From the NCBI GenBank assembly GCA_004524535.1, contig SDNY01000003.1, positions 1-64,000 on the forward strand: DNA of 64,000 bases, in the 5' to 3' direction. Source of the stretch: Promethearchaeota archaeon (GTDB taxonomy: Archaea > Asgardarchaeota > Lokiarchaeia > Sigyniarchaeales > SOKP01). The notes below the pieces were generated by a model. That model saw only the letters and a list, made by a program, of their open reading frames with translations. It searched no databases and was not told the DNA's origin. This document shows positions 220-28,184 of the stretch, piece by piece; position 1 is the first letter of the stretch, and every line of letters starts with the position of its first letter. The position numbers and the translations under genes were made by a program.

Positions 220-1801
220 TTATGGTAGAGCCAGCCTTCCAGTTATCAGGGAGACTTTCCCCGCAATGTCCAGGATGCATAATAAAATTCGGATCTACCA
301 ATTTTTTGAATGCCCTTAAGTACTTCCAATACATACCTGCTTGGTAATACGCTTGAATGTGGATAAACGGGTCTGGACGATAATTTAACCAACCCCGCTT
401 CAACGAGTATTCCGTAGTGACCGCATTAAGCTCTTGCACCTTTTCAAAGTCCTTATCTTTCGTACTTTTTCGTTCTAGCAGTTTTTTTCTGCTAAAATAT
501 CGAAACAGATGATAGGCATGCAAATAGCTTGTCTGCATCTCTCTATTGACGCAATCCACATGACTGGAGGAATTTCGTGCTAAAGAAGGGGATTCCCTTC
601 TCTTAGTATCTCGTTCCTCCATCTCACGATTGTACATCTCTGCGAATTCTGCACACTCATTCCAAGGAGTATACCACGTAATAAATAAGAAACCTGCGTC
701 CCAAAAACTATAAGGGATTGCAATCTTATTTGGCTTTTTCATTCTACTGGCTATTTGTTTAGGATGCAATTCCCAAGGTTTCATAGCAGCCCCATCTTTA
801 GCACGATTCTTTTTGAAATCTTCTGCCATCGAATTTATCCGTTTGATAACATAATCCAATTCCTCTTGAGTTTGAGCCCAGCATTCCCAATTCATCCACC
901 ATTCTGGAATTCCAATTTCTTTAAAGAATTCATATTCATGTGGAATTTTATCCTTTGGCCAGCGTGTCATAACAAGGGGATAATTACCTCCCTGAACCAT
1001 TACGGTGTTATGGCTGATTCCGAATTCTTGGTGACCCACTTCAAGAGTTAGGTTCTGCATATCATAAGGATTTGACATTCCCCACGCTACAACCGTTTTA
1101 TGTTTAGGGTGAGGATAAATTTTTACCGCAGCTTTAGTAACAACACCTAAAGCTCCTTGGCTTCCCATTAAAAATGACCACATGTCTGGACCAATACCAA
1201 ATTTGTAGAAAGGTTTTGCAAAAGGAAGCGCCCAAGAACCTGTTCTTACAACATCTCCGTTAGGAAATACGACTTCTGCACACATAAAGTTATCTCCTTG
1301 AGGCCCTACACTTGATGTATAAAGAGAGAAACCTCTATCAATAGCATCCCCCATTACAGTTGCTGCAGGAGGAGCCCCATCAGCTATAGGAGGAGCCCAA
1401 TCAGGATGATATTTCTCCATATAAGCCCATAGTCCACCGTTAGTGACACCAGGCTCAACGATTGCGTATCGATTCGCCTCATCAATTTCTATTATTCTAT
1501 CCATTCTACCTAAATCTAGTAAAACGCCTGCTGGTTTAATTGTTGGACACGCAAACCCACCAGAGAGCCCTCCAGAAACAGGACTTACTGCGATCTTTTC
1601 TGCTGAACAATAGATTAATATTTTGCGTATTTCTTCCGTGTATTTTGGTCGTACTACAATATCTGGGATTTGACTTTCTAGACCCATTACCGATTTAGCC
1701 AGATAAGAAGCAGTGATTGCTTTATTGTTGCTGGCATAATTCTTTCCCACTATCCCAATCATTGCTTCAAAATCTTTCTCATCGGGTGCCTTATACGACA
1801 T
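220..1801 (-). CDS. FAD-binding oxidoreductase (VAO/PCMH, GlcD-like), predicted spliced from 4 exons: 1801-608, 573-499, 466-268, 236-220 (494 aa)
   Basis: VAO-type motifs (DIVVRP, GVLLDLGRMDRIIEID, VEPGVT, GSQGALGVVTK). Removing three BHB inserts gives …EERD/IPPVMWIASIERCRQAICMPIICFD/STKDKDFEK… and the family-typical end FKKLVDPNFIMHPGRLALP*. The ORF track's 176-1801 call is the unspliced read-through. Confidence 0.88.
237..267 (-). other. Predicted 31-nt BHB intron (intron 3, phase 1) in FAD oxidoreductase mRNA
   Basis: Central helix CUGG/CUGG (C-G, U-G, G-U, G-C); bulges AC^A and AA^G; internal stem UUG-CGGGGA/UCCCUG(A)UAA; excision gives CCU GGA C|GG CUG GCU CUA CCA UAA = PGRLALP*. Confidence 0.8.
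467..498 (-). other. Predicted 32-nt BHB intron (intron 2, phase 0) in FAD oxidoreductase mRNA
   Basis: Central helix UUCG/CGAA perfect; bulges AU^A and AA^A; 9-bp internal stem UUUUAGCAG/CUGCUAGAA with A7 loop; carries an in-frame UAG relative to exon 2. Confidence 0.87.
574..607 (-). other. Predicted 34-nt BHB intron (intron 1, phase 0) in FAD oxidoreductase mRNA
   Basis: Exon helix UGGAGGAA/UUCCUCCA; central helix CGAG/CACG (3 of 4 pairs); bulges AU^A and AA^A; internal hairpin CUAA(G)AGAAGGG/CCCUUCUUUAG. Confidence 0.85.
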
Positions 1802-2017
1802 AATTATTCATACCTTTATTTTATTTGTTTTTTATGAATTATATTAAAATTTTTATTATTTTGGAAAATTAAATACTGAATTTTAATTTTTCTTAAAAGA
1901 ATTTCATAAAAAGAAAGACTTTTTTTTATAAAATTATTGTTCAATTCTTAAAAATAATTCACGTAAAATACAAAAATATTATTCAAAATTAGATAAATTT
2001 ATTGCTAATTTTAATTT

Positions 2018-2557
2018 TTACAAACCAGTATTCTTTAAAATTAGTCTAGTTAATGTATTGAATAAGACCTCAACATTTTCCCCCGTTTTAGAAGAGCATT
2101 CAATATAATCATAAAATTCATGGGATTTTGATATACTCATCGCTTTTTCAATAGAAATAGTTCTCATTTCCTGAAGATCTGATTTTCCTCCAACCATTAT
2201 AATTGGGATCTGTTCTCCAGCTGTACTGTTTTTAAAAATATTAAGCCATTCACCTATATTGTTCAATGTATTCTCTCGAGTGATGTCATACATGAAAATA
2301 CCACCAGATGATCCACGTAAATAAAAAGGTAACATAGGTCTAAATCGTTCCTCGCCTACTAAATCCCATATCTGCAATGAAATCTTTATATCATCTATTA
2401 CTAGGTTTTTCATATTGATATCAACGCCCATTGATTTTTCCATATCTTTTCCAATATCTTTTTGGAACTGGTCATTTAGATATCGAGAAATTAAAGCGGT
2501 TTTCCCAACTCCCGTATCTCCAAATACACAGACTTTAAAAGCATAATCCGATGAAAT
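2018..2557 (-). CDS. Rab/Ras-like small GTPase (about 179 aa, probable ATT start)
   Basis: Frame extends upstream of the ORF-track start to include FKVCVFGDTGVGKT (G1); WDLVGEE (G3), GGKSD (G4), ECSSKTG (G5); GGAGG lies 6 nt upstream of ATT at 2557. Confidence 0.9.
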   Translation of the reverse strand: MSSDYAFKVCVFGDTGVGKTALISRYLNDQFQKDIGKDMEKSMGVDINMKNLVIDDIKISLQIWDLVGEERFRPMLPFYLRGSSGGIFMYDITRENTLNNIGEWLNIFKNSTAGEQIPIIMVGGKSDLQEMRTISIEKAMSISKSHEFYDYIECSSKTGENVEVLFNTLTRLILKNTGL

Positions 2558-7358: not shown

Positions 7359-9113
7359 TTAAGTTAAATTAAAAAATTCTAAATATTCATGCATCGATGC
7401 TTTATATTTTTTATAATTATAAATATACGGGCCGACAATCTCCATTAATTTAATTATCAATTGATCTGGATTTTTTCTTGAAAAGATTTTGTATTTTTCG
7501 TTAACACGTTCTGTAATAAAGGTTGCTGATTTAATTTCTAGCATTTTTTTCAATGCGTCAATATCAGGATTATTTAATTCAATCGTGATTATTTCACCAA
7601 AATGTGGAATTTTCGAAATAAAATCATTGACAGTACCAAGTTCAGCAGTTTTTCCAGAAACCATAAGGATTTTATCGCAGTTTGAAACAATATTTTTACG
7701 ACCATGAATTATTAAGATAACATGAAATTTCTTTTTTATTTTATTCATAAAATCGTTAAAATTTTCACCTTGAATCCGTTCTAACTCGCCTGGAGGTACA
7801 GAGAACATAATTATATCAGGTGATTTTAGAAGTTCTCTTGAGATTGATAATAATAAACGATCTATATTAGAAAGTGTAGAAACTTTTTCTTTTTTTCTGT
7901 TTAATAATCCTGTTACTTCTAAGGCGGAATTTATAAAGCTCTTTTTAGTCTTGTATTTTGGAGGCAACGATATAATTTCGTCAATTTTACTAAAAATTCC
8001 AGCAAATTTTGCTTTAGTGCTTAAAGCTCTCTTTCTGATTTTCCATTTTGGTTTTATTTTAATATTATAATGTACTGCTTTCTTAATAGACATGTTTAAT
8101 ATTCTCTCATCAAGTAAATGCGAAGTTATAACAATTTTTTTCAACTCATCATTTGTAGCTAACTGTATATGTCTTCCGAATAATTTGATGGTTCCTGAAT
8201 CTATTAATTGAGAACCCGCTATTATATTAAACAATTTTACTATTTGTGTATTTGATCTGAATTCTCTTGATGATTCTAAATTGTAAAGGATTCCAATTGA
8301 TTGCCCTCTATGAATATTAAACGTTATATCTTTAATATCCTCTCCAGAAGATATATTATTAACTACGAGATGCTGTGTTCCCCCTTTTAAGTTAAATAAT
8401 GATTTAATTATTTGAAAGATATGAGGGGGGTTCTCAGCATCCCAACTTTTAATTACATCTGTATTTATAGAAATATTTTCCATGAAAGCTGTTACTCTTT
8501 TTACTTTTTGCCTTAATGTGCCTTTAAATTTCTCTCTTAATATCTCTTTGAAGCGTTCTATATAGGTTTTTATATATTTTTCAATTATAATTTGATTTTT
8601 TTCCATTAATTTTGGTTCAAGAGGGTATTTTTCTAAATTAATCTTGAATTTAATAATTAGATCAGGAAGATAAATTCTTATCTTTCTGAAGTAAGGATTC
8701 CCAACAACGGGACTATTTTCAAAATGCTCATCAATTAATTGGATTTCATTATCCAATATAGCTAAATGAGATTCTAATTCTTTTTTAATCAGCTTATTAA
8801 CTCTTTCTATTATTTTTTTAGGGCTAACAAGTCCATCTTTATCAATATCTGGCTCAACTATAATTTCAATAAAATCAAATTCAGTCTCTGTAGGGGTATA
8901 TATTTTTATGAGGGGAACACCGCGTTTTATTACATCCTCATTGGTGAAAAATAAGATTTCAATATATAATCTTTTATAAATTAAATCTAAAATAGTGGCA
9001 ATTCCAAACGTTCTTTCTCGGTAAATCATCCAATACTTTTCCGAAAATCGAATTGCATCAACAATTTTTAATCTTAAAACCTCTAATTGAGGTACTTTAA
9101 TAATAGAACTCAT
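7359..9113 (-). CDS. Degenerate ABC-ATPase-like protein with N-terminal UBC/UEV/RWD-like region
   Basis: ABC scaffold (ITFNIHRGQSIGIL, ALEVTGLL…LS…SRELLKSPDII) without Walker A or DE; upstream KYPLEP…SWDAENPPHIFQII. Confidence 0.65.
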   Translation of the reverse strand: MSSIIKVPQLEVLRLKIVDAIRFSEKYWMIYRERTFGIATILDLIYKRLYIEILFFTNEDVIKRGVPLIKIYTPTETEFDFIEIIVEPDIDKDGLVSPKKIIERVNKLIKKELESHLAILDNEIQLIDEHFENSPVVGNPYFRKIRIYLPDLIIKFKINLEKYPLEPKLMEKNQIIIEKYIKTYIERFKEILREKFKGTLRQKVKRVTAFMENISINTDVIKSWDAENPPHIFQIIKSLFNLKGGTQHLVVNNISSGEDIKDITFNIHRGQSIGILYNLESSREFRSNTQIVKLFNIIAGSQLIDSGTIKLFGRHIQLATNDELKKIVITSHLLDERILNMSIKKAVHYNIKIKPKWKIRKRALSTKAKFAGIFSKIDEIISLPPKYKTKKSFINSALEVTGLLNRKKEKVSTLSNIDRLLLSISRELLKSPDIIMFSVPPGELERIQGENFNDFMNKIKKKFHVILIIHGRKNIVSNCDKILMVSGKTAELGTVNDFISKIPHFGEIITIELNNPDIDALKKMLEIKSATFITERVNEKYKIFSRKNPDQLIIKLMEIVGPYIYNYKKYKASMHEYLEFFNLT

Positions 9114-12100
9114 TCTAATTTTGGGACCTCCATAGCTTTATATCTAAAATATTGTTCAATCTTTGTATCATTCTGCTTTATATCTTTAATCGAATCAAAA
9201 CCAAAATTTAATTTAATTTTTTCTTCTAACGAGCTTATATTCAAATCGGAAAGTATAGAAAAATCAGTTCCCGCTTTATTTTCAAGAGCTTTATCAATGC
9301 CTTCAATGGATTCGAGCCTTTCAATCGCATTTTCATTTACACCATTAAAATATAAGTCGACAGTTCTTCCTTTACCTGGTAATTGAGCTAATAAATCTTT
9401 AGGACGGCCATAATCTATCATCCCTCTCATTCTCCCAAAAATGGCAACGCGGTGGCAAAATTGAGATTCTTCAGGATAATGAGTTACCACTATTAAAGTT
9501 GAATTAAATTGTTCATTGATTTTAGTCAGTGCTAACCAAAGATTTTCCCTCACCACTGGATCCAATCCACTAGTAGGTTCATCCATCCAAATAATAATAG
9601 GATCATGAATTAATGCCATAGCAATGGATACACGCCTCTTTTGACCCCCAGATAAATTTTTAACCTTTTCATGCATTTTATCTTCAATTTCTAAAGCAGT
9701 TAATATCCGCTTTGCTTTTTGCATGACCAATTTCTCTGTCATATCATATTGCTTTCCGAAATACATTATATTTTGCAAAGTCGTGAAATTTTGGTAAATT
9801 TTATCGAGATCTTGAGGGACATAACCATAAATTGGTCGCATCTTCTTATGTTTCTTCTTGACATTCATGCCATAAATCTGAATTTTTCCTTTATATTTTC
9901 GCATTCCTAAAAGGGATTTTACAAATGTTGACTTACCAGCACCACTCTCTCCTAATACTCCTAAAATTTCTCCATGCTTTAATTTCATCGACACAGACTT
10001 AACTATTAACTTTCTCCCAGCAAAAATATTTACATTCTCGCATAAAATGGCTGGAAACTTTTCCAAATATGATATATTATATTTTTCACCGACTCCAAAT
10101 CTTTCTTTCAATTTTTTGGAAACTGTTACATTTAATATGGAAATGATCTTGATAATGCCAAATAAAAGTAGTATTAACATTTCTATAATAAATATTGATG
10201 TAATTAAATCATTCCAAGGTTTTGGGTTAAAACTTTGGTCATAACTTAATTCTTCAATGAGCATTATACCATATGGTGTATTTCTTAAATCTCCACCAAA
10301 CATAGGAAAGTCTCCAACTCCTCCTGTGTTAGAACTGAGACAATCTTCGTACCAATCAATTAAATCTTCAATATTTTCTGGTTGAAAATCATATTCGTAT
10401 AGTCCCATTGCTGCGAAATATGATACGAAAAATGTCGATGGAAACTCAAAAAGATCTGAGATTACAGGGATCGGAGCAAAGCTTCCATCTTCATCTTGGG
10501 CTTTTTTCAAAAATTCTATTGCCGCAATTGTTGACATAGGGTCTATCTCTAAAATTTTTAAAGTTTTTAATCCAAAATAAGTTGAAATAGTGTCGCTATG
10601 AAACCCTAAAACTATTGGAAAACCCCCATCAGCGCTTTGGGCTGCTGAAATCCAATGAATTAAATTATCCTCATCAAGCTTATCCAAAGCTTCTAAAATC
10701 TTTAGTGATGCTACGGCCCAATATGTACTTTCCATAGTCGGCGTATCTGTTTCAATTAGATCAGTAAACATTTGACTTAATGGTCCAAAAATGGACATAA
10801 GTTCATTTATATCAACCCCTAATTCAAATCCTCCATCATCATCTTGAAGATCAACTAAATAATCAATTGTATCTTTTCTATCAGGAAGAGAAATATCTGA
10901 ATAAGTAAGTAATATTTCATAAAGATTAATTGCATGATAAGTTGCTAATAAACTTGTACTTCCACTAGGTTGAGAGCTAAATCCTCCATCTCCTTTATTA
11001 TAACAATCTTCCACATAATCCCACATATTATCTATATCAACATAATCAGTAAAATTATCAGGCTCGACGAGATATATCGATAATGCTCCTAAATAATTCG
11101 CTTCAAGTGAAGTATGCCCAAATAATCCGTTCTTTGCTTGATGAGTGTATAACCAGCTATAATAATTTTGAATATAGGTTTCGATATCCACCCCTGGCAA
11201 ATTAACCTTATCTCTGAGTAAATCTATTGACTTCATGGCAGCCCATCCAGATATAAAATCTGAACTACTATTCAAATAAGCATCTGATCCAAAACCTCCA
11301 TCTAACTTCCCACAATTAAGGATAAACTGAAGTGTTTCATTAGCTTTATCCGGTATAATATTTAAAGTATACATTGATGATAATGCATAAAAAGTAGATT
11401 GAACGTTGGATATTCCAACGCTAGAATATCCACCATCGATGTTTCTAAGACTCTTGAGATAATTTTCAATAGTTTTATTTTGAAATTGATTGAATTTTTG
11501 ACCTAATTCTAAATAAGCTTTAATTCTATAATACAATTGCTCAACAGATTCATCATCCCAATTACTTAGTTCTACATAATTAGTAATATTTGGATTACTA
11601 AGAATAGATTTGGCGTTAAATATATTAGCCATATGAATTGCACAATATGTAGATCTAATATCGGGCAAAGGTGCGTATTCATTATATTTAAAACCCCATC
11701 CATCCTCTAAAAGACAATTTTGGATATAAGTTAAAATTTTCCCGATTTCATCGGATTTTGAATATAAATAAGTAGGATTTAATAAATCTATAATCTCTAT
11801 TACCTCATAAGTTGAAAACATGTTGCCTAAACCACCAATATCAGAAAACGAACCATTATTGTTCTGTTTTTCAAATAAATAATCAAAAAAGAACTCATCA
11901 TAATCCCTTATATAACTAATTGACCTAGGAAAAATTAAATCAGTTAAATATGGATAAACATGAGAAAAATCAATTGAATCAATTGCACGGAAGTTTGCAT
12001 CGATTTCAGGTTCAATAAAAAGATCAGAATCAGAATTTTTGTGTGAATATGAAAACTCCATCATATCTTCTTTCAAATCTTGAAGTTCATCATCATCATA

Positions 12101-12208
12101 ATATTTTATCCAAGGATAATTTATGACAGCTAAAATCGTAAGCTGCAAAGTGAACAATGCTGATAAAAATAATAAAATTTTTAATTTTCGTTTTGTTTTA
12201 TCTTCTAT
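9110..12208 (-). CDS. Fusion: prenyltransferase/squalene-cyclase-like repeats + TM helix + ABC ATPase (probable ATA start at 12208)
   Basis: Repeated Q..DGGF…STY.A motifs; TM near aa 670-695; GESGAGKS, LSGGQ, WMDEPTSGLD. Frame extends 17 codons upstream of the ORF-track start to an ATA preceded by AGGTGA. Confidence 0.85.
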   Translation of the reverse strand: MEDKTKRKLKILLFLSALFTLQLTILAVINYPWIKYYDDDELQDLKEDMMEFSYSHKNSDSDLFIEPEIDANFRAIDSIDFSHVYPYLTDLIFPRSISYIRDYDEFFFDYLFEKQNNNGSFSDIGGLGNMFSTYEVIEIIDLLNPTYLYSKSDEIGKILTYIQNCLLEDGWGFKYNEYAPLPDIRSTYCAIHMANIFNAKSILSNPNITNYVELSNWDDESVEQLYYRIKAYLELGQKFNQFQNKTIENYLKSLRNIDGGYSSVGISNVQSTFYALSSMYTLNIIPDKANETLQFILNCGKLDGGFGSDAYLNSSSDFISGWAAMKSIDLLRDKVNLPGVDIETYIQNYYSWLYTHQAKNGLFGHTSLEANYLGALSIYLVEPDNFTDYVDIDNMWDYVEDCYNKGDGGFSSQPSGSTSLLATYHAINLYEILLTYSDISLPDRKDTIDYLVDLQDDDGGFELGVDINELMSIFGPLSQMFTDLIETDTPTMESTYWAVASLKILEALDKLDEDNLIHWISAAQSADGGFPIVLGFHSDTISTYFGLKTLKILEIDPMSTIAAIEFLKKAQDEDGSFAPIPVISDLFEFPSTFFVSYFAAMGLYEYDFQPENIEDLIDWYEDCLSSNTGGVGDFPMFGGDLRNTPYGIMLIEELSYDQSFNPKPWNDLITSIFIIEMLILLLFGIIKIISILNVTVSKKLKERFGVGEKYNISYLEKFPAILCENVNIFAGRKLIVKSVSMKLKHGEILGVLGESGAGKSTFVKSLLGMRKYKGKIQIYGMNVKKKHKKMRPIYGYVPQDLDKIYQNFTTLQNIMYFGKQYDMTEKLVMQKAKRILTALEIEDKMHEKVKNLSGGQKRRVSIAMALIHDPIIIWMDEPTSGLDPVVRENLWLALTKINEQFNSTLIVVTHYPEESQFCHRVAIFGRMRGMIDYGRPKDLLAQLPGKGRTVDLYFNGVNENAIERLESIEGIDKALENKAGTDFSILSDLNISSLEEKIKLNFGFDSIKDIKQNDTKIEQYFRYKAMEVPKLE

Positions 12209-13270
12209 TACGCCTCACCTTCCATTATTTGTTCGCTTTCTCTTAATTTCCTTTCTTTCTCCTGTTCTTCTTGGATTCTAATCTGGAAATACCTTCTAAA
12301 AGTAGCATTATCCTTACTCATGGAAGTAACTTTTAAATTGTTTTTTATCGTATATTCAATTAATTTCTGAAGGTTTTCTTCAAAATCCTCAATAAACACT
12401 TCAATTATTTCATTTCCGACACGTATTGTTTTTTGGACGGGTGTAAAATTTTTAATAATTTTAATTTTATTCTCAGTAAGATCCTCAATAGTTAATCTAG
12501 TTAATAAGCCACCACTCGGGAGTGATGCTATGAGATTATCATTAGAATCGAATTCTAATAATTTTCCATCTCTTAAAATCGCGCTTTTATCACATATTAA
12601 GGCTGCCTCCATATCGTGTGTGATAAGAAACATTGTCGTTCCTAATTTTCGATTTAACTTTTTTAAATATGAGAGAACTTCATATCTTTTTGCTGCGTCT
12701 ACACCTTTTACCTCCAACTGCGTCTTACGCTAGTATGGATGTGGTAGGCTCGTCAAGAAAAAGAATTTTAGGCTGATGGATTAAACCAATAGCCACTGAA
12801 ACTCTCTTTTTTTCTCCTCCGCTTAATTTTTTTAATCGTTTTTTCCAAGTATCTTCCGGAATGTCAAGTATCGAAAATAGTTCTTTTGCTATTTCTTTCG
12901 CATTTTTTTTTTTCAATCCATAGGTCGATGCAAATGTTTCTACATTCGCCATAGGAGACAACTCATAGTAAAGATTGAGACCTTCAAGTTGAGGAACATA
13001 TCCAATATTGCTTAAGATTTTTGGATGATTTCTACTTTGTGCGGGATTTAAATCGGTGACTTTTACATTCCCATTCCAGTTCTTTTTATTGAGCTGGCAC
13101 GTAAGTACTCGTATAATAGTTGTTTTGCCAGCACCACTGATACCAAATAAACCGATTATTTCTCCGGATTTCACTTGAAAAGATACATCATGAACGACCT
13201 GTTTGTCTCCGAATTTAACATTTAAATTTTCGACATTTACCATTACATCCGTTATGTTTTCTGACTTCAA
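12208..13270 (-). CDS. ABC transporter ATP-binding protein, predicted spliced from exons 13270-12741 and 12706-12208 (342 aa)
   Basis: ORF track splits it in two. Walker A GISGAGKT and LSGGE lie in the 5' part; removing the 34-nt BHB insert restores FLDEPTTGVDAAKR and the downstream ITHDM H-loop. Confidence 0.92.
12707..12740 (-). other. Predicted 34-nt BHB intron (phase 2) in ABC ATPase mRNA
   Basis: Central helix UACC/GGUA perfect; bulges AC^A and AA^A; exon helix GCC/GGU; internal hairpin UCCA(U)ACU(A)GCGU-AAG-ACGC-AGU-UGGA; contains in-frame UAA. Confidence 0.92.
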
Positions 13271-13324: not shown

Positions 13325-14557
13325 TTATACCTCATATCTTTTTCTTTTAATTACCAAAAATGAAAGTACTATAAACGCAAGACTTAAAATAAGTAAAGCA
13401 AAAAAGTCGAAGCAAAAGACTGATTTCCCTTTTGATAGGATTCCATTTATCATTGGTTTTCCATGAGATAATGGTAAGATAAACGCTACTATTTGTAAAT
13501 ATTCAGGCATGGATTCTATAGGAACAAAAATTCCACTTAAAAGGGCAATTACGATAAAGGCCGCGAAGAATAGTTGATTGGCTTCTGTCTTTGTTTTACT
13601 TACTGTACTGATAAACATTCCTAAAGAGACGCCCGTAAAGCCTAAAATGAATAAGGCCAAAAATATATCAAATAACGAGCCGGCCACATAGAGACCATTA
13701 AGAAGTGAAGTTGAAAGAATTATAAATACTTGGAGCGCTAAGATAATAGAATATGTAATATATTTGGACAAGAGAATTTCATGTTTTTTAGCAGGGGTTA
13801 GTAAAAGACGAGCGATAGGTTTTTCTTGTACGACTACTAAAATAGTAAGTACAGTGCTAATTCCGAAAATCATAAATGAAAATAATATAATCATGCTATA
13901 ATTGAACCTGAAATTATAATCAGATGGTACTGAATACTCTTCGTATTCCATAAGGACGAATTGAGGGTCTAAATTGTTATCTTCTACAAAAAGATCAATT
14001 GAATCCTCAACGGCATTAAGTTTTTCTTGGATATAGAATATTTCTGAGCTATCTGGTATACATTCGATTATCCCAGGTAAATCTGTAGATAAAAACTCTG
14101 AGAACTCTACAGGAATCTCAATAATAATTCCAATTTTACTATCACGTAAATCATCTCTTGCCTTTTCCATAGCATATTTTTCTTCACTTGCATCGTAGAA
14201 ATCAACAAGGTCCAAATATTTAGATTTTTCGACAGCGTCTAAATATTTTTCAGTAAAATTATCCCAAAAAGTTGTAATTGTATAGTTATCTTGATTGACA
14301 TATAATTCGGAATCATAGCTAACAACAGTACATTTAACTGGAATAATTTCTGAGGCACCAGCAGAAGACATGGAAGCAAACATCCATATTATTAGTGGTG
14401 GTAATGCAAGGGCAATAAAGAGATTGATTTTATCGGTTTTTAAAAGCTGGAATTCTTTTTTTATCTGTTTTGCCAATCGAAATAATCGAATTTTTAATTT
14501 TAAAAAACCACCGGTATACGTGTCATTGCTACTCATTTGATTATTCTTGTCATCCAA
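13325..14557 (-). CDS. ABC-2 type transporter permease
   Basis: IKKEF…, RLLLTP…EILLSK, LGMFISTVSKT, LSGIFVPIESMP motifs. Confidence 0.9.
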   Translation of the reverse strand: MDDKNNQMSSNDTYTGGFLKLKIRLFRLAKQIKKEFQLLKTDKINLFIALALPPLIIWMFASMSSAGASEIIPVKCTVVSYDSELYVNQDNYTITTFWDNFTEKYLDAVEKSKYLDLVDFYDASEEKYAMEKARDDLRDSKIGIIIEIPVEFSEFLSTDLPGIIECIPDSSEIFYIQEKLNAVEDSIDLFVEDNNLDPQFVLMEYEEYSVPSDYNFRFNYSMIILFSFMIFGISTVLTILVVVQEKPIARLLLTPAKKHEILLSKYITYSIILALQVFIILSTSLLNGLYVAGSLFDIFLALFILGFTGVSLGMFISTVSKTKTEANQLFFAAFIVIALLSGIFVPIESMPEYLQIVAFILPLSHGKPMINGILSKGKSVFCFDFFALLILSLAFIVLSFLVIKRKRYEV

Positions 14558-14563
14558 TATTTA

Positions 14564-15730
14564 TCAGACCTCCACCTTTTTAAATCTATAAGCAATATAT
14601 GCTCCTATTATGAAAACCAAAGAAATCAAATTTAAACTAAGAAAGTGGAATAAATCAATAGGTAAGCCTTTTTTAGTAATTTCATTTATTAATGGAACAG
14701 CATGACTTAATGGCAACGCGTTGATTATGAATTGCATTGCAACCGGTAATGTATCCATTCTTATGAATGAGCCTGAAAACATCAATAAAGCGATAAAAAG
14801 CATTATATAGAGTTGGTTTGCTTGTTGTTCCGTCTTACTTATTGAGGAAATGAATAAACCTATACAAATCCCACAAAAACCTATTGCAATTAAAATCAGA
14901 TAGAGACTAAACAAGGATCCTAAAGAAAACATCCCAAATATCGCTGATAGAGCAAATATAATTGTTACCTGGAATAACATTATTATTGAATTTGCTATCA
15001 GTTTACTTAAGATTATTTCTTTTTTAGCGGTCGGTGTGAGTTGTAAGCGGGGGAGCGGTCCTTCAGACACAATTGATAAGGAAGTAAGATTCATTAACAA
15101 TCCTAGAATAAGCATTGATAAAACTATGGATAGAGCATAGTTCAAAACTTGAGTCTCCCAATACGGCACCTCATATTCAAGGTAAGGAAACATTGTTACG
15201 AAATTAACCGTTTTCCGTATCCTAATTTTAAACAAACCAATTGGTTCCTGAATCGCCACATCAACTGCATCAACCGCCTCTAAATCTGATCCATCGATGT
15301 AATAAGTAAGAGTTGTATCAGTTTCGTTCTCTATTGTTTCAGAGAAATCTTCCTCCAAAATAATAAATACATCTATGATTTCATTCCTTAGGAGCTCAAA
15401 GCACTCTTCAAATGCATCATCATATTCTTCCTCATTATCACATGAATATGAATCAATAAGGCCCCATGCTGAACAATCATCCTCCACAACATCAATAAAT
15501 ATATCGTCATAATTAAGGGTAGAATTTGATTCAAGAGGGAATTCAGGAGTTTCGTATGGTATATTATCACGGGAAATAATTGCTGCGTTATAGAATTCAG
15601 TGGGGCCTCCTCCACTAGTTAGACCGAATATCACGATTAATATGACTGGGATTGTAAATATTAAAATTAAAGTTCTTTTATCTGCTTTAATTCTACTAAA
15701 TTCTTTCCTTATTAAACCGCTTAAATACAT
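14564..15730 (-). CDS. ABC-2 type transporter permease
   Basis: LIRKEFSRIKADKRTL, IGLFISSISKTEQQA, FSGSF…LPLSHA. Confidence 0.9.
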   Translation of the reverse strand: MYLSGLIRKEFSRIKADKRTLILIFTIPVILIVIFGLTSGGGPTEFYNAAIISRDNIPYETPEFPLESNSTLNYDDIFIDVVEDDCSAWGLIDSYSCDNEEEYDDAFEECFELLRNEIIDVFIILEEDFSETIENETDTTLTYYIDGSDLEAVDAVDVAIQEPIGLFKIRIRKTVNFVTMFPYLEYEVPYWETQVLNYALSIVLSMLILGLLMNLTSLSIVSEGPLPRLQLTPTAKKEIILSKLIANSIIMLFQVTIIFALSAIFGMFSLGSLFSLYLILIAIGFCGICIGLFISSISKTEQQANQLYIMLFIALLMFSGSFIRMDTLPVAMQFIINALPLSHAVPLINEITKKGLPIDLFHFLSLNLISLVFIIGAYIAYRFKKVEV

Positions 15731-17943: not shown

Positions 17944-18579
17944 TTAATTCCTGCTTTTTAATCCTTGTCTTCTCTTTTTATCTTTTATGATAAACTCTTT
18001 AAATTCTGAATTATCATCATCTATGAATTCCCAAAATTCTTCGTATATTTCTTTAAGAGTCATTACCTTTTCCTCATTGGATACAATTTTTTCAGGTTCA
18101 CTATTCATATGTATATTTTTTACCTTTTTTGGTTTATATTCAAGATAATTTCCTTCAAGAATTAGATTTTCGAAAAGATCATCATTGCTTTTATTGAAAT
18201 TGTCAATATTAGCCTCCTTATTTTTATTAAGAGCCAAATCAAGGTCTACTTTTTGATATCCCCGAACTTTAAATTGTTTATCAATGAAAACTTGAAAATG
18301 ATGTTTACAAACTAAATCTTTAGGTATAGATACTGTTGTTAGACCAGTTTGGTTGATAATTGATACTGGAACAGTGATATCCTTTTTAGATTTACAAATA
18401 GGGCATATAACATTTACAATCTTAACTTTTTGTGAAGAAACATCAATTTCACTTAATTCTGAATTTGAAAACGAGTCTTTCAACATAAATAAGTCACTAT
18501 TCATATTTTTAAAAACAAAGTTAAAAAGTCGTAAATTATTGATATCTAATAATTTTAAACTTATTTTTCCTTTATCCAA
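17944..18579 (-). CDS. Hypothetical protein with CPxC…CxH zinc-binding domain (true start probably further downstream)
   Basis: CPIC…CKHHFQVFIDKQFKVR, paralogous to neighbour; the ORF-track start leaves no promoter space before the divergent gene. Confidence 0.7.
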   Translation of the reverse strand: MDKGKISLKLLDINNLRLFNFVFKNMNSDLFMLKDSFSNSELSEIDVSSQKVKIVNVICPICKSKKDITVPVSIINQTGLTTVSIPKDLVCKHHFQVFIDKQFKVRGYQKVDLDLALNKNKEANIDNFNKSNDDLFENLILEGNYLEYKPKKVKNIHMNSEPEKIVSNEEKVMTLKEIYEEFWEFIDDDNSEFKEFIIKDKKRRQGLKSRN

Positions 18580-23853: not shown

Positions 23854-24044
23854 AATATTTCACTACTTAAGTGTTCCTAATAAATTGAATTACTTACAAT
23901 TTATATTTTCTTCCTAGTTAATAAAAAAAAATGTAATTTTAAAATGGAATTGTCTACTTTTTTTTTCTATACGCCTGTATTTTTATTTATATCAATATTA
24001 CCAAGTCTGGGGACGCTGCTGATACCAGGGATCCTATTAAGCTA

Positions 24045-26315
<2,271 letters not shown>

Positions 26316-26536
26316 TTAAATTTATAAAGAATCTAAATCAGACTAACACTAAGATTCCTAAATAATAACTATTTTTATTTAGTTACAGTTTTTTAAAAAA
26401 GATTATGTCTTTATTTTATAAATAAAAAAGAAAAATGATTTAACCAGATAATCACTAAAGAATTAGGTCTATAAATATTCACGTTTTAGCAATCTTAAAA
26501 AAAGAGTGTATTAAATAATATTCTTATATTTTTGAT

Positions 26537-27319
26537 TTATAATCTTTTATATCTCTGGCTTGCAATATATGCCGCACCCAACGCACCCACAATTTGAGGA
26601 TCTAAAGACATTTTTAAAAACCTTTCTCCAAGCATTTCTTCTAAATAGCGCACTACACCTATATTCTTCGCAACGCCACCAGATATTGCAATATCTTTCT
26701 TAACTTTTATACGTTTTGTCATAGAAAATACTCGTTCCGCCATAGCTTTATTAATTCCAGCAGCAATATTTGCCTTTTTGAAGCCTGAACTAATATATTG
26801 TAGCACTTCTGCCTGAGCATATATACTACATGTGCTTTTTAGATTTATTGGTGCCTTGCTTTTTAAAGAAATTGTACCTAATTCTGTTAACGAGAGATGT
26901 AATAAATCTGCCATTATTTCAAGATATCTGCCTGTGCCCGCTGAACACTTCTCATTCATTCCAAAATCAATCAGCTTTCCAGTACGATCAATTGAGATAA
27001 CCTTACAATCTTGACCTCCTATATCAATAATAGTACGAACACTTGGAAGTAAAAAATGTGCCCCAATCCCATGACAAGTAATTTCGGTAACACTCTTATT
27101 GGAAAATGGGATATTATCTCTCCCATAGCCTGTGCTAACAATAAAATTTACATCCTCCTTATTTATATTTGTTTCGGACAACACTATTTCAAAAACACTT
27201 TCAGCTGTCTCTATCGGAGTTTTTTTTACTCGAATTACCTTAAATCCTACTATTTCATTATCCTTCAATAATAAAGCTTTTCCAGTTAAGGATCCAATAT
27301 CTATTCCAGCAAAGACCAT
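26537..27319 (-). CDS. 2-hydroxyacyl-CoA dehydratase activase (HgdC/BadF-type ASKHA ATPase)
   Basis: GIDIGSLTGK, STGYGR, DIGGQDCK, MNEKCSAGTG, STCSIYA. Confidence 0.92.
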   Translation of the reverse strand: MVFAGIDIGSLTGKALLLKDNEIVGFKVIRVKKTPIETAESVFEIVLSETNINKEDVNFIVSTGYGRDNIPFSNKSVTEITCHGIGAHFLLPSVRTIIDIGGQDCKVISIDRTGKLIDFGMNEKCSAGTGRYLEIMADLLHLSLTELGTISLKSKAPINLKSTCSIYAQAEVLQYISSGFKKANIAAGINKAMAERVFSMTKRIKVKKDIAISGGVAKNIGVVRYLEEMLGERFLKMSLDPQIVGALGAAYIASQRYKRL

Positions 27320-27386
27320 TTTTATATACCCATATTTTGTAGTTAAAAAAATATTTTTTCATAACTAAATTGAAAATCCAATTAAT

Positions 27387-28184
27387 TCATCCACCTCTTT
27401 CTTTTGCTGCAATTGCTGCTCCATAAGCAGTTATATATTCAGGGTCAAGAGGTAATTTTATTAACTCAAAATTCAGTCTCTCTTCGAGGTTTTGAACTAT
27501 TTTTTGGTTCTTAGCCACACCACCCGTAAAGGCAACATTCTTAAACTCCTTATCAATCATCTTGATTAAAGGATAAGCCCTCGCTGCCACAGAATTACAT
27601 ACCCCTGCCACTAAATCAGGCAGATACGCCCCTTCATTTTTATATGAAATAACTTCTGACTCCGCAAAAATACTACATTGACTGGATATTGAAATTGGAT
27701 TTTTCGCTTTTAAAGCTACATCTGCTAGCTCAGAAACGTCCAATTCTAATCCTTCGCCTACTAATTCTAATAATATCCCCGATCCAGCGGCACATTTATT
27801 ATTCATCATAAAATCTACTATTTTTCCATTTTCATCCATTTTTAATGCTTTCATGCTAAAGCTACCTATATCCACAGCGACTCTTACCTGAGGATTTAGA
27901 CTATAAACGCCTTTCCCTATACATGTAATTTCAGATTCTTTTTCTTTTATGGAAATTTTATCAGAATTCAAACCAGTAGCTAATGCGGTTTTTTTTAATA
28001 ATTTCAGTTTAATCTTTAACTTTTTAGATAATTCTTTCAAACATAGATTAATGGCTTTTTCTGGATTACCCAAAACTAATATTTTAGTTTTTCCCAATAT
28101 TTTCTCTCCATTAGAATCTACTATAACAACTTTACAAACTGTAGATCCGACATCTATCCCAACAAAATAGTTTTTATTAACCAA
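27387..28184 (-). CDS. 2-hydroxyacyl-CoA dehydratase activase (second paralog)
   Basis: GIDVGSTVCK, MNNKCAAGSG, QCSIFAESEVIS, TGGVAKN. Confidence 0.9.
   Translation of the reverse strand: MVNKNYFVGIDVGSTVCKVVIVDSNGEKILGKTKILVLGNPEKAINLCLKELSKKLKIKLKLLKKTALATGLNSDKISIKEKESEITCIGKGVYSLNPQVRVAVDIGSFSMKALKMDENGKIVDFMMNNKCAAGSGILLELVGEGLELDVSELADVALKAKNPISISSQCSIFAESEVISYKNEGAYLPDLVAGVCNSVAARAYPLIKMIDKEFKNVAFTGGVAKNQKIVQNLEERLNFELIKLPLDPEYITAYGAAIAAKERGG

Follow-up and report, generated by a model that had tools for sequence, protein, structure and literature searches.

How can a gene give one complete protein when its reading frame is broken inside a catalytic motif? This question is raised by a gene for an ATP-binding cassette (ABC) ATPase on contig SDNY01000003.1 of a Promethearchaeota archaeon (assembly GCA_004524535.1), of which positions 1 to 64,000 were analyzed. 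This stretch of 64,000 nucleotides (nt) is called the window in the following, all coordinates of the locus refer to it, and the gene and its interruption lie on the minus strand. The frame is broken between the Walker B motif and the D-loop by 34 nt (12707-12740), which a preliminary description had read as an archaeal intron of the bulge-helix-bulge (BHB) type, the removal of which would be required for function. This reading is supported by orthologs that lack the intron, by introns at the same site in 11 other genomes, by covariation within the RNA structure and by the presence of the splicing enzymes EndA and RtcB. From the comparison of sequences, we consider it very likely that 12707-12740 is a spliced archaeal BHB intron, of a kind usually located in tRNA genes, in the coding sequence of the ABC ATPase.

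The first of the two open reading frames (ORFs) at this locus, 12725..13270(-), encodes 181 amino acids (aa) which form the nucleotide-binding core, and ends with ...ILFLDEPTTSILA (DEPTTSILA). The second one, 12208..12717(-), lies in another frame and reads ..GVDAAKRYEV...LITHD... up to the stop. When 12707-12740 is taken out, the sequence becomes DEPTTGVDAAKR and the two ORFs become one, with a length of 177 + 165 = 342 aa if translation starts at the TTG at 13270. An alternative start of exon 1 is the ATG at 13243, nine codons inside. Exon 1 (12741..13270) carries Walker A, the signature and Walker B and ends with ...LFLDEPT + AC; it matches the Pfam family ABC_tran (9.7e-27) with residues 27-177 on model positions 2-137 of 137. 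Exon 2 (12208..12706, stop codon at 12208-12210) carries the D-loop GVD, the H-loop (..LITHD..) and the C-terminal domain. Only once the intron is removed do Walker A, signature, Walker B, D-loop and H-loop share one chain. If it is retained, the frame shifts and a stop is reached after SILA (UAA, five codons into the intron). The preliminary description had given the sequence and position of the intron exactly to the base, and its fusion of the two ORFs into a 342-aa ATPase by removal of 34 nt was confirmed. The paralog in the same gene row, which it had named for its uninterrupted DEPTSGLD, was likewise found at 9110..12157(-).

The minus-strand RNA at the junction reads GAC GAG CCU ACC AC/A UCCA-(19 nt)-UGGA GGUA AA/A GGU GUA GAC, where the slashes mark the presumed cuts. 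For 12695-12752(-), the minimum free energy (MFE) structure calculated with RNAfold is the hBHBh' (helix-bulge-helix-bulge-helix) motif itself, with -15.1 kcal/mol. In the outer helix h of the MFE fold, GCC of exon 1 (12747..12749) pairs with GGU, the Gly codon of exon 2 (12703..12705). The central helix H of 4 base pairs (bp) is formed by UACC of exon 1, which comprises the third base of the Pro codon and the Thr codon (12743..12746), and by GGUA of the intron (12709..12712), the latter found in both the MFE and the consensus fold. The 5' bulge ACA (12740..12742) is unpaired in both folds and contains the presumed 5' cut between 12741 and 12740; the 3' bulge AAA (12706..12708) contains the presumed 3' cut between 12707 and 12706. 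The inner helix h' (12713..12739), in which UCCA (12736-12739) pairs with UGGA (12713-12716), closes a GC-richer hairpin. The intron boundaries of 12707 and 12740 assume that each bulge is cut behind its second nucleotide.

Relatives with and without the insert were compared to the gene of the window. A search with exon 2 as query found matches in every one of 60 relatives (E <= 0.001); at E <= 1e-30, matches were obtained for 72 genomes out of the 153 in the order. 76 ortholog loci were fetched, two of which are cut by contig ends, leaving 74 readable junctions (one of them, that of L084, was read by eye). At 62 of these 74 loci the junction is contiguous and free of any insert (GAY GAR CCN ACN ACN GGN GTN GAY). 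The same-genus genome G008 has an uninterrupted 341-aa gene, which is also matched by ABC_tran; its identity to the two ORFs of the window amounts to 93% in the N half and 98% in the C half. The other 12 loci carry an insert of 31-34 nt at the identical nucleotide, after ...CCN ACN AC. They belong to six genera, with the own genome in genus g1, six genomes in g2, one in g11, two in g3, one in g12 and one in g4. Two types of insert can be told apart by length and central helix, type A with 31 nt and RACU/RGUU in seven genomes and type B with 32-34 nt and UACC/GGUA in five genomes. The own intron is of type B, but its interior differs strongly and is richer in GC. The unspliced frame meets a stop after 4-7 codons in each of the 12 alleles, and removal of the insert brings back DEPTTGVD and a single open frame of normal length in each of them. 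The 5' bulge ACA is unchanged in every one of them.

These alleles also bear on the idea that the ribosome skips the 34 nt, either by translational bypassing or by a programmed frameshift. A hairpin is present in the gap and the two ORFs lie in different frames in 11 of the 12 alleles, as such a mechanism would have it. However, matching codons for take-off and landing are absent from both sides of the gap in all 12 alleles, and a frameshift cannot serve all of them, since the 33-nt insert of the G011 allele is in frame with an internal stop. Moreover, the conserved feature is the geometry with two bulges that is recognised by EndA and not a bypass signal. We therefore regard skipping by the ribosome as very improbable and return to the intron.

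Covariation was tested on nine column-consistent pairs of the BHB motif in the alignment of the 12 sequences (11 distinct rows). Pairing was found in 99.0% of 99 cells, compared to a mean of 84.2% after shuffling, and the observed value was reached in 0 of 500 shuffles. Changes on both sides, i.e., compensatory ones, occur in 5 of the 9 tested pairs, and sliding the 3' partner by 1-3 columns leaves just 12-54% paired. RNAalifold, to which no structure was supplied, returned (((((((...((.....((((.....)))).....))))))...))), which is hBHBh', with 7 of 13 pairs compensatory. The BHB motif can be adopted by all 12 intron alleles, with a perfect central helix of 4 bp in ten of them. Across the alleles, 3 bp are found in helix h and 2 to 10 contiguous bp in helix h', which the hairpin extends; double changes occur in both helices, and the first two pairs of h' covary. 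In the central helix H, the types (UACC/GGUA vs RACU/RGUU) differ on both sides in two of the four pairs.

Part of the BHB motif is coding sequence, and synonymous sites are thereby constrained. The third bases of the Pro and the first Thr codon are (A/G,U) in type A and (U,C) in type B, each matching its partner in the intron, and intron-free alleles use 13 of the 16 combinations of these two bases. At the third bases of the Glu and Gly codons, the outermost of the tested pairs, every one of the 12 intron alleles has G-C, A-U or G.U, and pairing is possible in just 35 of 61 intron-free alleles; since related sequences are not independent, these counts at synonymous sites are not to be taken as probabilities.

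The ratio of nonsynonymous to synonymous substitution rates (dN/dS) of both exons had been named beforehand as the check on which splicing could fail. Among the 17 pairs for which it was computed, the ratio ranges from 0.04 to 0.27 for both exons (top value 0.265), which is well below 1 and favours splicing, with the reservation that a pairwise dN/dS cannot separate the two lineages compared. Between the own gene and the intron-free gene of G008 it is 0.087 (exon 1 0.122, exon 2 0.038; dS 0.235). For pairs with an intron in both genes, where dS is large, values of 0.037 (L012/L013), 0.045 (L046/L043) and 0.119 (L021/L045) were obtained. Judged by these ratios, strong purifying selection acts on both exons.

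This result is of importance for the alternative that the insert is kept. The gene would then be a decaying pseudogene or would encode two separate polypeptides, an N-terminal half with Walker A and B and a C-terminal half with the D-loop, the H-loop and the C-terminal domain. Gene callers would indeed see two ORFs, the own allele has a TTG in the exon-2 frame four codons ahead of the junction, and the paralogous ATPase of the same gene row might cover a loss of function. On the other hand, the low dN/dS of both exons is found also in intron/intron pairs with saturated dS, and in each of the 12 alleles both flanks are intact and come into phase once the insert is taken out. Exon 2 has no conserved start, which argues against a split gene: in the 12 alleles, the earliest in-frame start is found at positions between codon -4 and codon +24 and is a TTG at -4 in the own allele only, a GTG at +1 in three alleles, a TTG at +13 or +16 in another three and a conserved internal Met at +24 in five. 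Neither the pseudogene nor the split gene explains the compensatory upkeep of the BHB motif including the synonymous exon bases. A retained insert thus seems improbable to us, and splicing is the preferred explanation.

Besides the reservation on pairwise dN/dS, several points weigh against a spliced intron. The fold energy of the own sequence is only modestly unusual (z = -1.94; 9 of 200 shuffles fold equally well). Genome-wide, the strict BHB motif in combination with an ORF fusion gives 30 matches vs 34 for a control geometry with 5-nt bulges, and the motif alone is therefore not beyond chance. Two alleles (G010, G155) have one C.A mismatch in the central helix, and the unconstrained MFE structure of the AU-rich type-A alleles is a different fold, 1-6 kcal/mol below the fold constrained to BHB. 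To explain the scattered presence and absence of the intron, a minimum of 9 changes has to be placed on the gene tree, and 21 losses are required if it was gained once at the base of the family. The G019 allele is located on a long branch (0.59) and may be decaying.

Chance has to be considered here in its own right, either as a spurious 34-nt insertion that happens to fold or as an assembly artefact, and ORF-fusing BHB-like matches do arise about 30 times per genome by chance. But the insert is present at the identical nucleotide in twelve independently assembled genomes of six genera, and its excision restores a universal motif exactly, which makes an accident of this kind barely credible. 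In terms of sequence, it is the exact restoration of the Walker B/D-loop region together with the comparison to relatives that takes the intron beyond chance.

For splicing, the following course of events is proposed. The gene row would be transcribed and the BHB motif would fold locally. Within the pre-mRNA, exon 1 would contribute its final nine bases (GCC-UACC-AC), which would pair with GGUA at the 3' end of the intron and with GGU from the first bases of exon 2, and the interior of the intron would form a hairpin. EndA would then cut once in each bulge. In BHB motifs the cut follows the second nucleotide of the bulge, and a cut after the third nucleotide instead would lead to the identical protein. 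RtcB would join the exons at the predicted junction ...CCUACCAC + AGGUGUAGAC. The joined message would be in frame and restore ...LFLDEPTTGVDAAKR..., giving a single ATPase of approximately 333-342 aa with intact Walker B, D-loop and H-loop; the predicted junction peptide is ILFLDEPTTGVDAAK. The structure with its conservation and covariation, the intron-free orthologs, the purifying selection on both exons and the enzymes are observed, and from these we infer cleavage, ligation and the exact cut positions inside the bulges. Unspliced RNA could yield just the N-terminal fragment, which would end five codons into the intron. Ribosomes on unspliced RNA would unfold the exon half of the motif, and it may be speculated that the balance between splicing and translation could set the yield. 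That splicing regulates the transporter, as the preliminary description had suggested, is likewise a speculation.

The enzymes for these steps are encoded in the host genome, which has a size of 3.66 Mb in 198 contigs, a G+C content of 30% and a completeness of 99%. Two EndA paralogs (tRNA_int_endo, PF01974) were found above the Pfam cut-off, on contigs C100 (107.9 bits) and C84 (70.7 bits). Both consist of 201 aa and they are 29% identical over 121 aligned residues. In the motif ..GLEHSPF.. the C100 copy has a His where the C84 copy has a Lys. The C100 copy keeps the Tyr/His/Lys positions, which we take to be the catalytic residues of EndA, and its closest solved chains of tRNA-splicing endonucleases are 3p1z_B, 3ajv_B and 2cv8_A. 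By their sequences, the two copies would fit a pair of a catalytic and a structural type, as in hetero-oligomeric (alpha-beta)2 EndA. RtcB (PF01139) is encoded on C101 (561 bits). ARAGORN identified 22 tRNA genes in the own genome, 13 of which were called with introns. Two of the tRNA calls carry implausible 'introns' of 1.5-2.9 kb. Only 22 tRNA genes in a genome that is 99% complete suggest that many heavily interrupted tRNA genes are missed by ARAGORN.

The history of the intron was analyzed with a quick maximum-likelihood tree of 71 spliced proteins, from which two short rows and L084 were left out. Type A is confined to the clade of g2 and g11 (39 rows), and type B occurs in the other two clades of the family. 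The intron is absent from the six orthologs that belong to other families of the order and class. No second copy of the own intron exists in the own genome, and 7 of 134 family genomes contain the type-A core, each of them once and at no other gene than this one, with 0 occurrences of the reversed control pattern; the intron is therefore not a dispersed mobile repeat. A mobile element was considered as its source and found no support from this copy search in the own genome and the 134 family genomes. The intron is old within this family and has disappeared, or perhaps returned, on many occasions. In the simplest history it descended vertically and precise losses were frequent; repeated gain or an exchange of alleles may have occurred instead.

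The nearest known counterpart of the ATPase intron is a BHB intron in the pre-mRNA of cbf5, the gene of a pseudouridine synthase, which was reportedly described for Crenarchaeota by Watanabe in 2002. The cbf5 intron and the ATPase intron are alike in being short BHB introns in the catalytic motif of a coding sequence that have to be removed (16-44 bp vs 31-34 nt here). Both have in-frame and out-of-frame alleles and a scattered distribution which is read as gain and loss, and the hosts of the cbf5 intron have a hetero-oligomeric EndA. In portions of the 2009 work by Yokobori on crenarchaeal cbf5 (PMC2738675), the intron is described as 16-44 bp long, located in the catalytic codon, subject to gain and loss in related lineages, and associated with a hetero-oligomeric EndA. 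The ATPase intron differs from it by its gene, with the Walker B/D-loop region as its site, and by its phylum (Asgard archaea, Promethearchaeota). In addition, splicing of cbf5 was shown experimentally, whereas for the ATPase we infer it. The host gene is an ABC ATPase and not a homolog of cbf5/dyskerin, and the intron appears to work like the cbf5 intron but is distinct from it.

Passages of a study from 2020 name cbf5 as the only additional BHB intron reported and add one in the 5' untranslated region (UTR) of a Haloferax gene (PMC7714728). According to the same passages, the mRNA of HVO_1309 in Haloferax volcanii is cut by the archaeal splicing endonuclease in vivo and in vitro, as proposed here for the ATPase, but its intron is located in the 5' UTR leader and the reading frame is uninterrupted (PMC7714728). 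In Asgard archaea, tRNA genes are very intron-rich, and two EndA paralogs are stated for 44 of 60 genomes in parts of a preprint (10.64898/2026.10.13.758758); BHB introns of Asgard tRNA genes also appear in sections of another paper (PMC11291895). They share the motif and the presumed enzymes with the ATPase intron, but their hosts are tRNA genes. In the respective parts of these two texts, supplements aside, protein-coding introns are not mentioned, and the word 'mRNA' occurs 0 times in the preprint (10.64898/2026.10.13.758758; PMC11291895). Our literature search, supplements aside, found BHB introns that interrupt protein-coding sequence reported for crenarchaeal cbf5 only. The ATPase intron apparently represents the same mechanism as the cbf5 intron in a new gene family and a new phylum, and apparently is the first one in Asgard archaea.

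In the mRNA of HAC1 and XBP1, a short intron is removed independently of the spliceosome by an endonuclease that recognises structure, a tRNA ligase joins the exons, and the frame changes. In contrast to the ATPase intron, the endonuclease is IRE1 and not EndA, the recognised structure is a stem-loop and not a BHB motif, and regulation by stress is proven. IRE1-dependent splicing of HAC1/XBP1 mRNA with ligation by RtcB in eukaryotes is named in part of a review (PMC13149111).

Two further inserts were spotted by eye in the same genome from junction peptides and then confirmed against orthologs. The first one is located on contig C74(-) at approximately 9858-9899 (locus L088/L089) in an AMP-binding gene similar to acetoacetyl-CoA synthetase. 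It is 30 nt long, in frame, contains a TAA and lies between ..SWMM and WNW... Among 19 orthologous loci, the insert occupies the identical position in 7, and the other 12 read straight through. The halves of the gene cover positions 6-192 and 222-377 of the 384 positions of Pfam AMP-binding. In a manual reading, a BHB register that excises exactly 30 nt has three of four central pairs and an inner hairpin of 9 bp with one compensatory change; RNAalifold recovered the inner hairpin alone and proposed another helix with downstream exon bases. A register given by the strict BHB scan was a spurious neighbouring one and was corrected by the ortholog comparison. The second insert is found on contig C52(-) at 18534-18563 (locus L108/L110) in an acetyl-CoA synthetase gene. 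It also consists of 30 nt, is in frame, contains a TAG and lies between ..DTYWQ and TETGG... It occurs in four genomes, all of the own genus, and the other 20 of 24 loci are open frames of 627-721 aa. It folds BHB-like, with four central pairs in one allele and three in the others. Both inserts sit in AMP-forming acyl-CoA synthetases.

In a read-through Pfam search of the whole genome, just these two genes are interrupted among 13 AMP-binding matches; internal stops were found in 0 of 53 Radical_SAM and 0 of 14 AAA matches by this test, which detects in-frame inserts only. Such introns recur in the own genome but are not common. A relaxed BHB scan gave 258 matches vs 207 and 248 in controls, bridging by paralogs 37 vs 31 and 38, and the gap-free version of the latter 4 vs 3 and 0. 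No filter of these scans separates real introns from gene boundaries. As an intron, C150:2984-3034 was rejected, as paralogs match one frame only, and C4:5888-5918, C72:2297-2346, C66:2333-2357 and many others were judged by eye to be natural gene ends or starts. On C103, at about 12318-12458 (locus L109), the same-strand ORFs 555..1415 and 1355..2191 overlap by 60 nt with several BHB-like matches in the overlap; a frameshift or a further interruption could lie behind this.

With a second, third and fourth case in coding regions, mRNA splicing by EndA and RtcB in archaea would be more than a peculiarity of cbf5. Their hosts are genes of transport and central metabolism in Asgard archaea, the closest known relatives of eukaryotes, and the ATPase intron bears on the rise of protein-mediated mRNA splicing. 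A broader view would be that such splicing forms a recurrent layer of gene expression in this Asgard family and is an archaeal counterpart of IRE1/RtcB-type splicing. At least three introns (30-34 nt, unrelated positions) would then sit in catalytic motifs, vary between close relatives and possibly gate the output of transporters and synthetases via the activity of EndA and RtcB or via a competition between ribosome and fold, since truncated protein is all that unspliced RNA would give. We put this forward tentatively and hold it to be rather unlikely. For annotation, it matters that such genes get called as two ORFs or as pseudogenes. With regard to intron evolution, sister species differ in whether this site is occupied or empty, and synonymous sites of the exons are bound by RNA structure. 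The ATPase intron is also a small and well-defined substrate suited to bench testing.

ABC_tran fragments on C187 and C183 were examined as well and turned out to be two halves of one gene cut by contig ends. At C44:8900-9193(+), a truncated ABC ATPase fragment reaches from Walker A to the region of the Q-loop and then stops; it is probably a gene remnant. Searches of the window gave no match to Rfam and no tRNA by ARAGORN. According to Pfam and the ORF list, two genes for ABC-2 type permeases are located upstream of the interrupted ATPase gene in the same gene row (13325..14557 and 14564..15730, both on the minus strand). The downstream paralog (9110-12157, minus strand) is a fusion of prenyltransferase repeats and an ABC ATPase. 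Its product of 1015 aa consists of prenyltransferase alpha-alpha-toroid repeats (Pfam 9.9e-41), a membrane stretch and the ABC ATPase domain. This architecture is kept in relatives, where open frames of approximately 1050 aa adjoin the ortholog of the ATPase. Further along the window, the G+C content rises locally to 0.405 at 24001-28000, compared to about 0.30 elsewhere, in a region which spans the ORFs 24045..26261(-) and 26537..27319(-).

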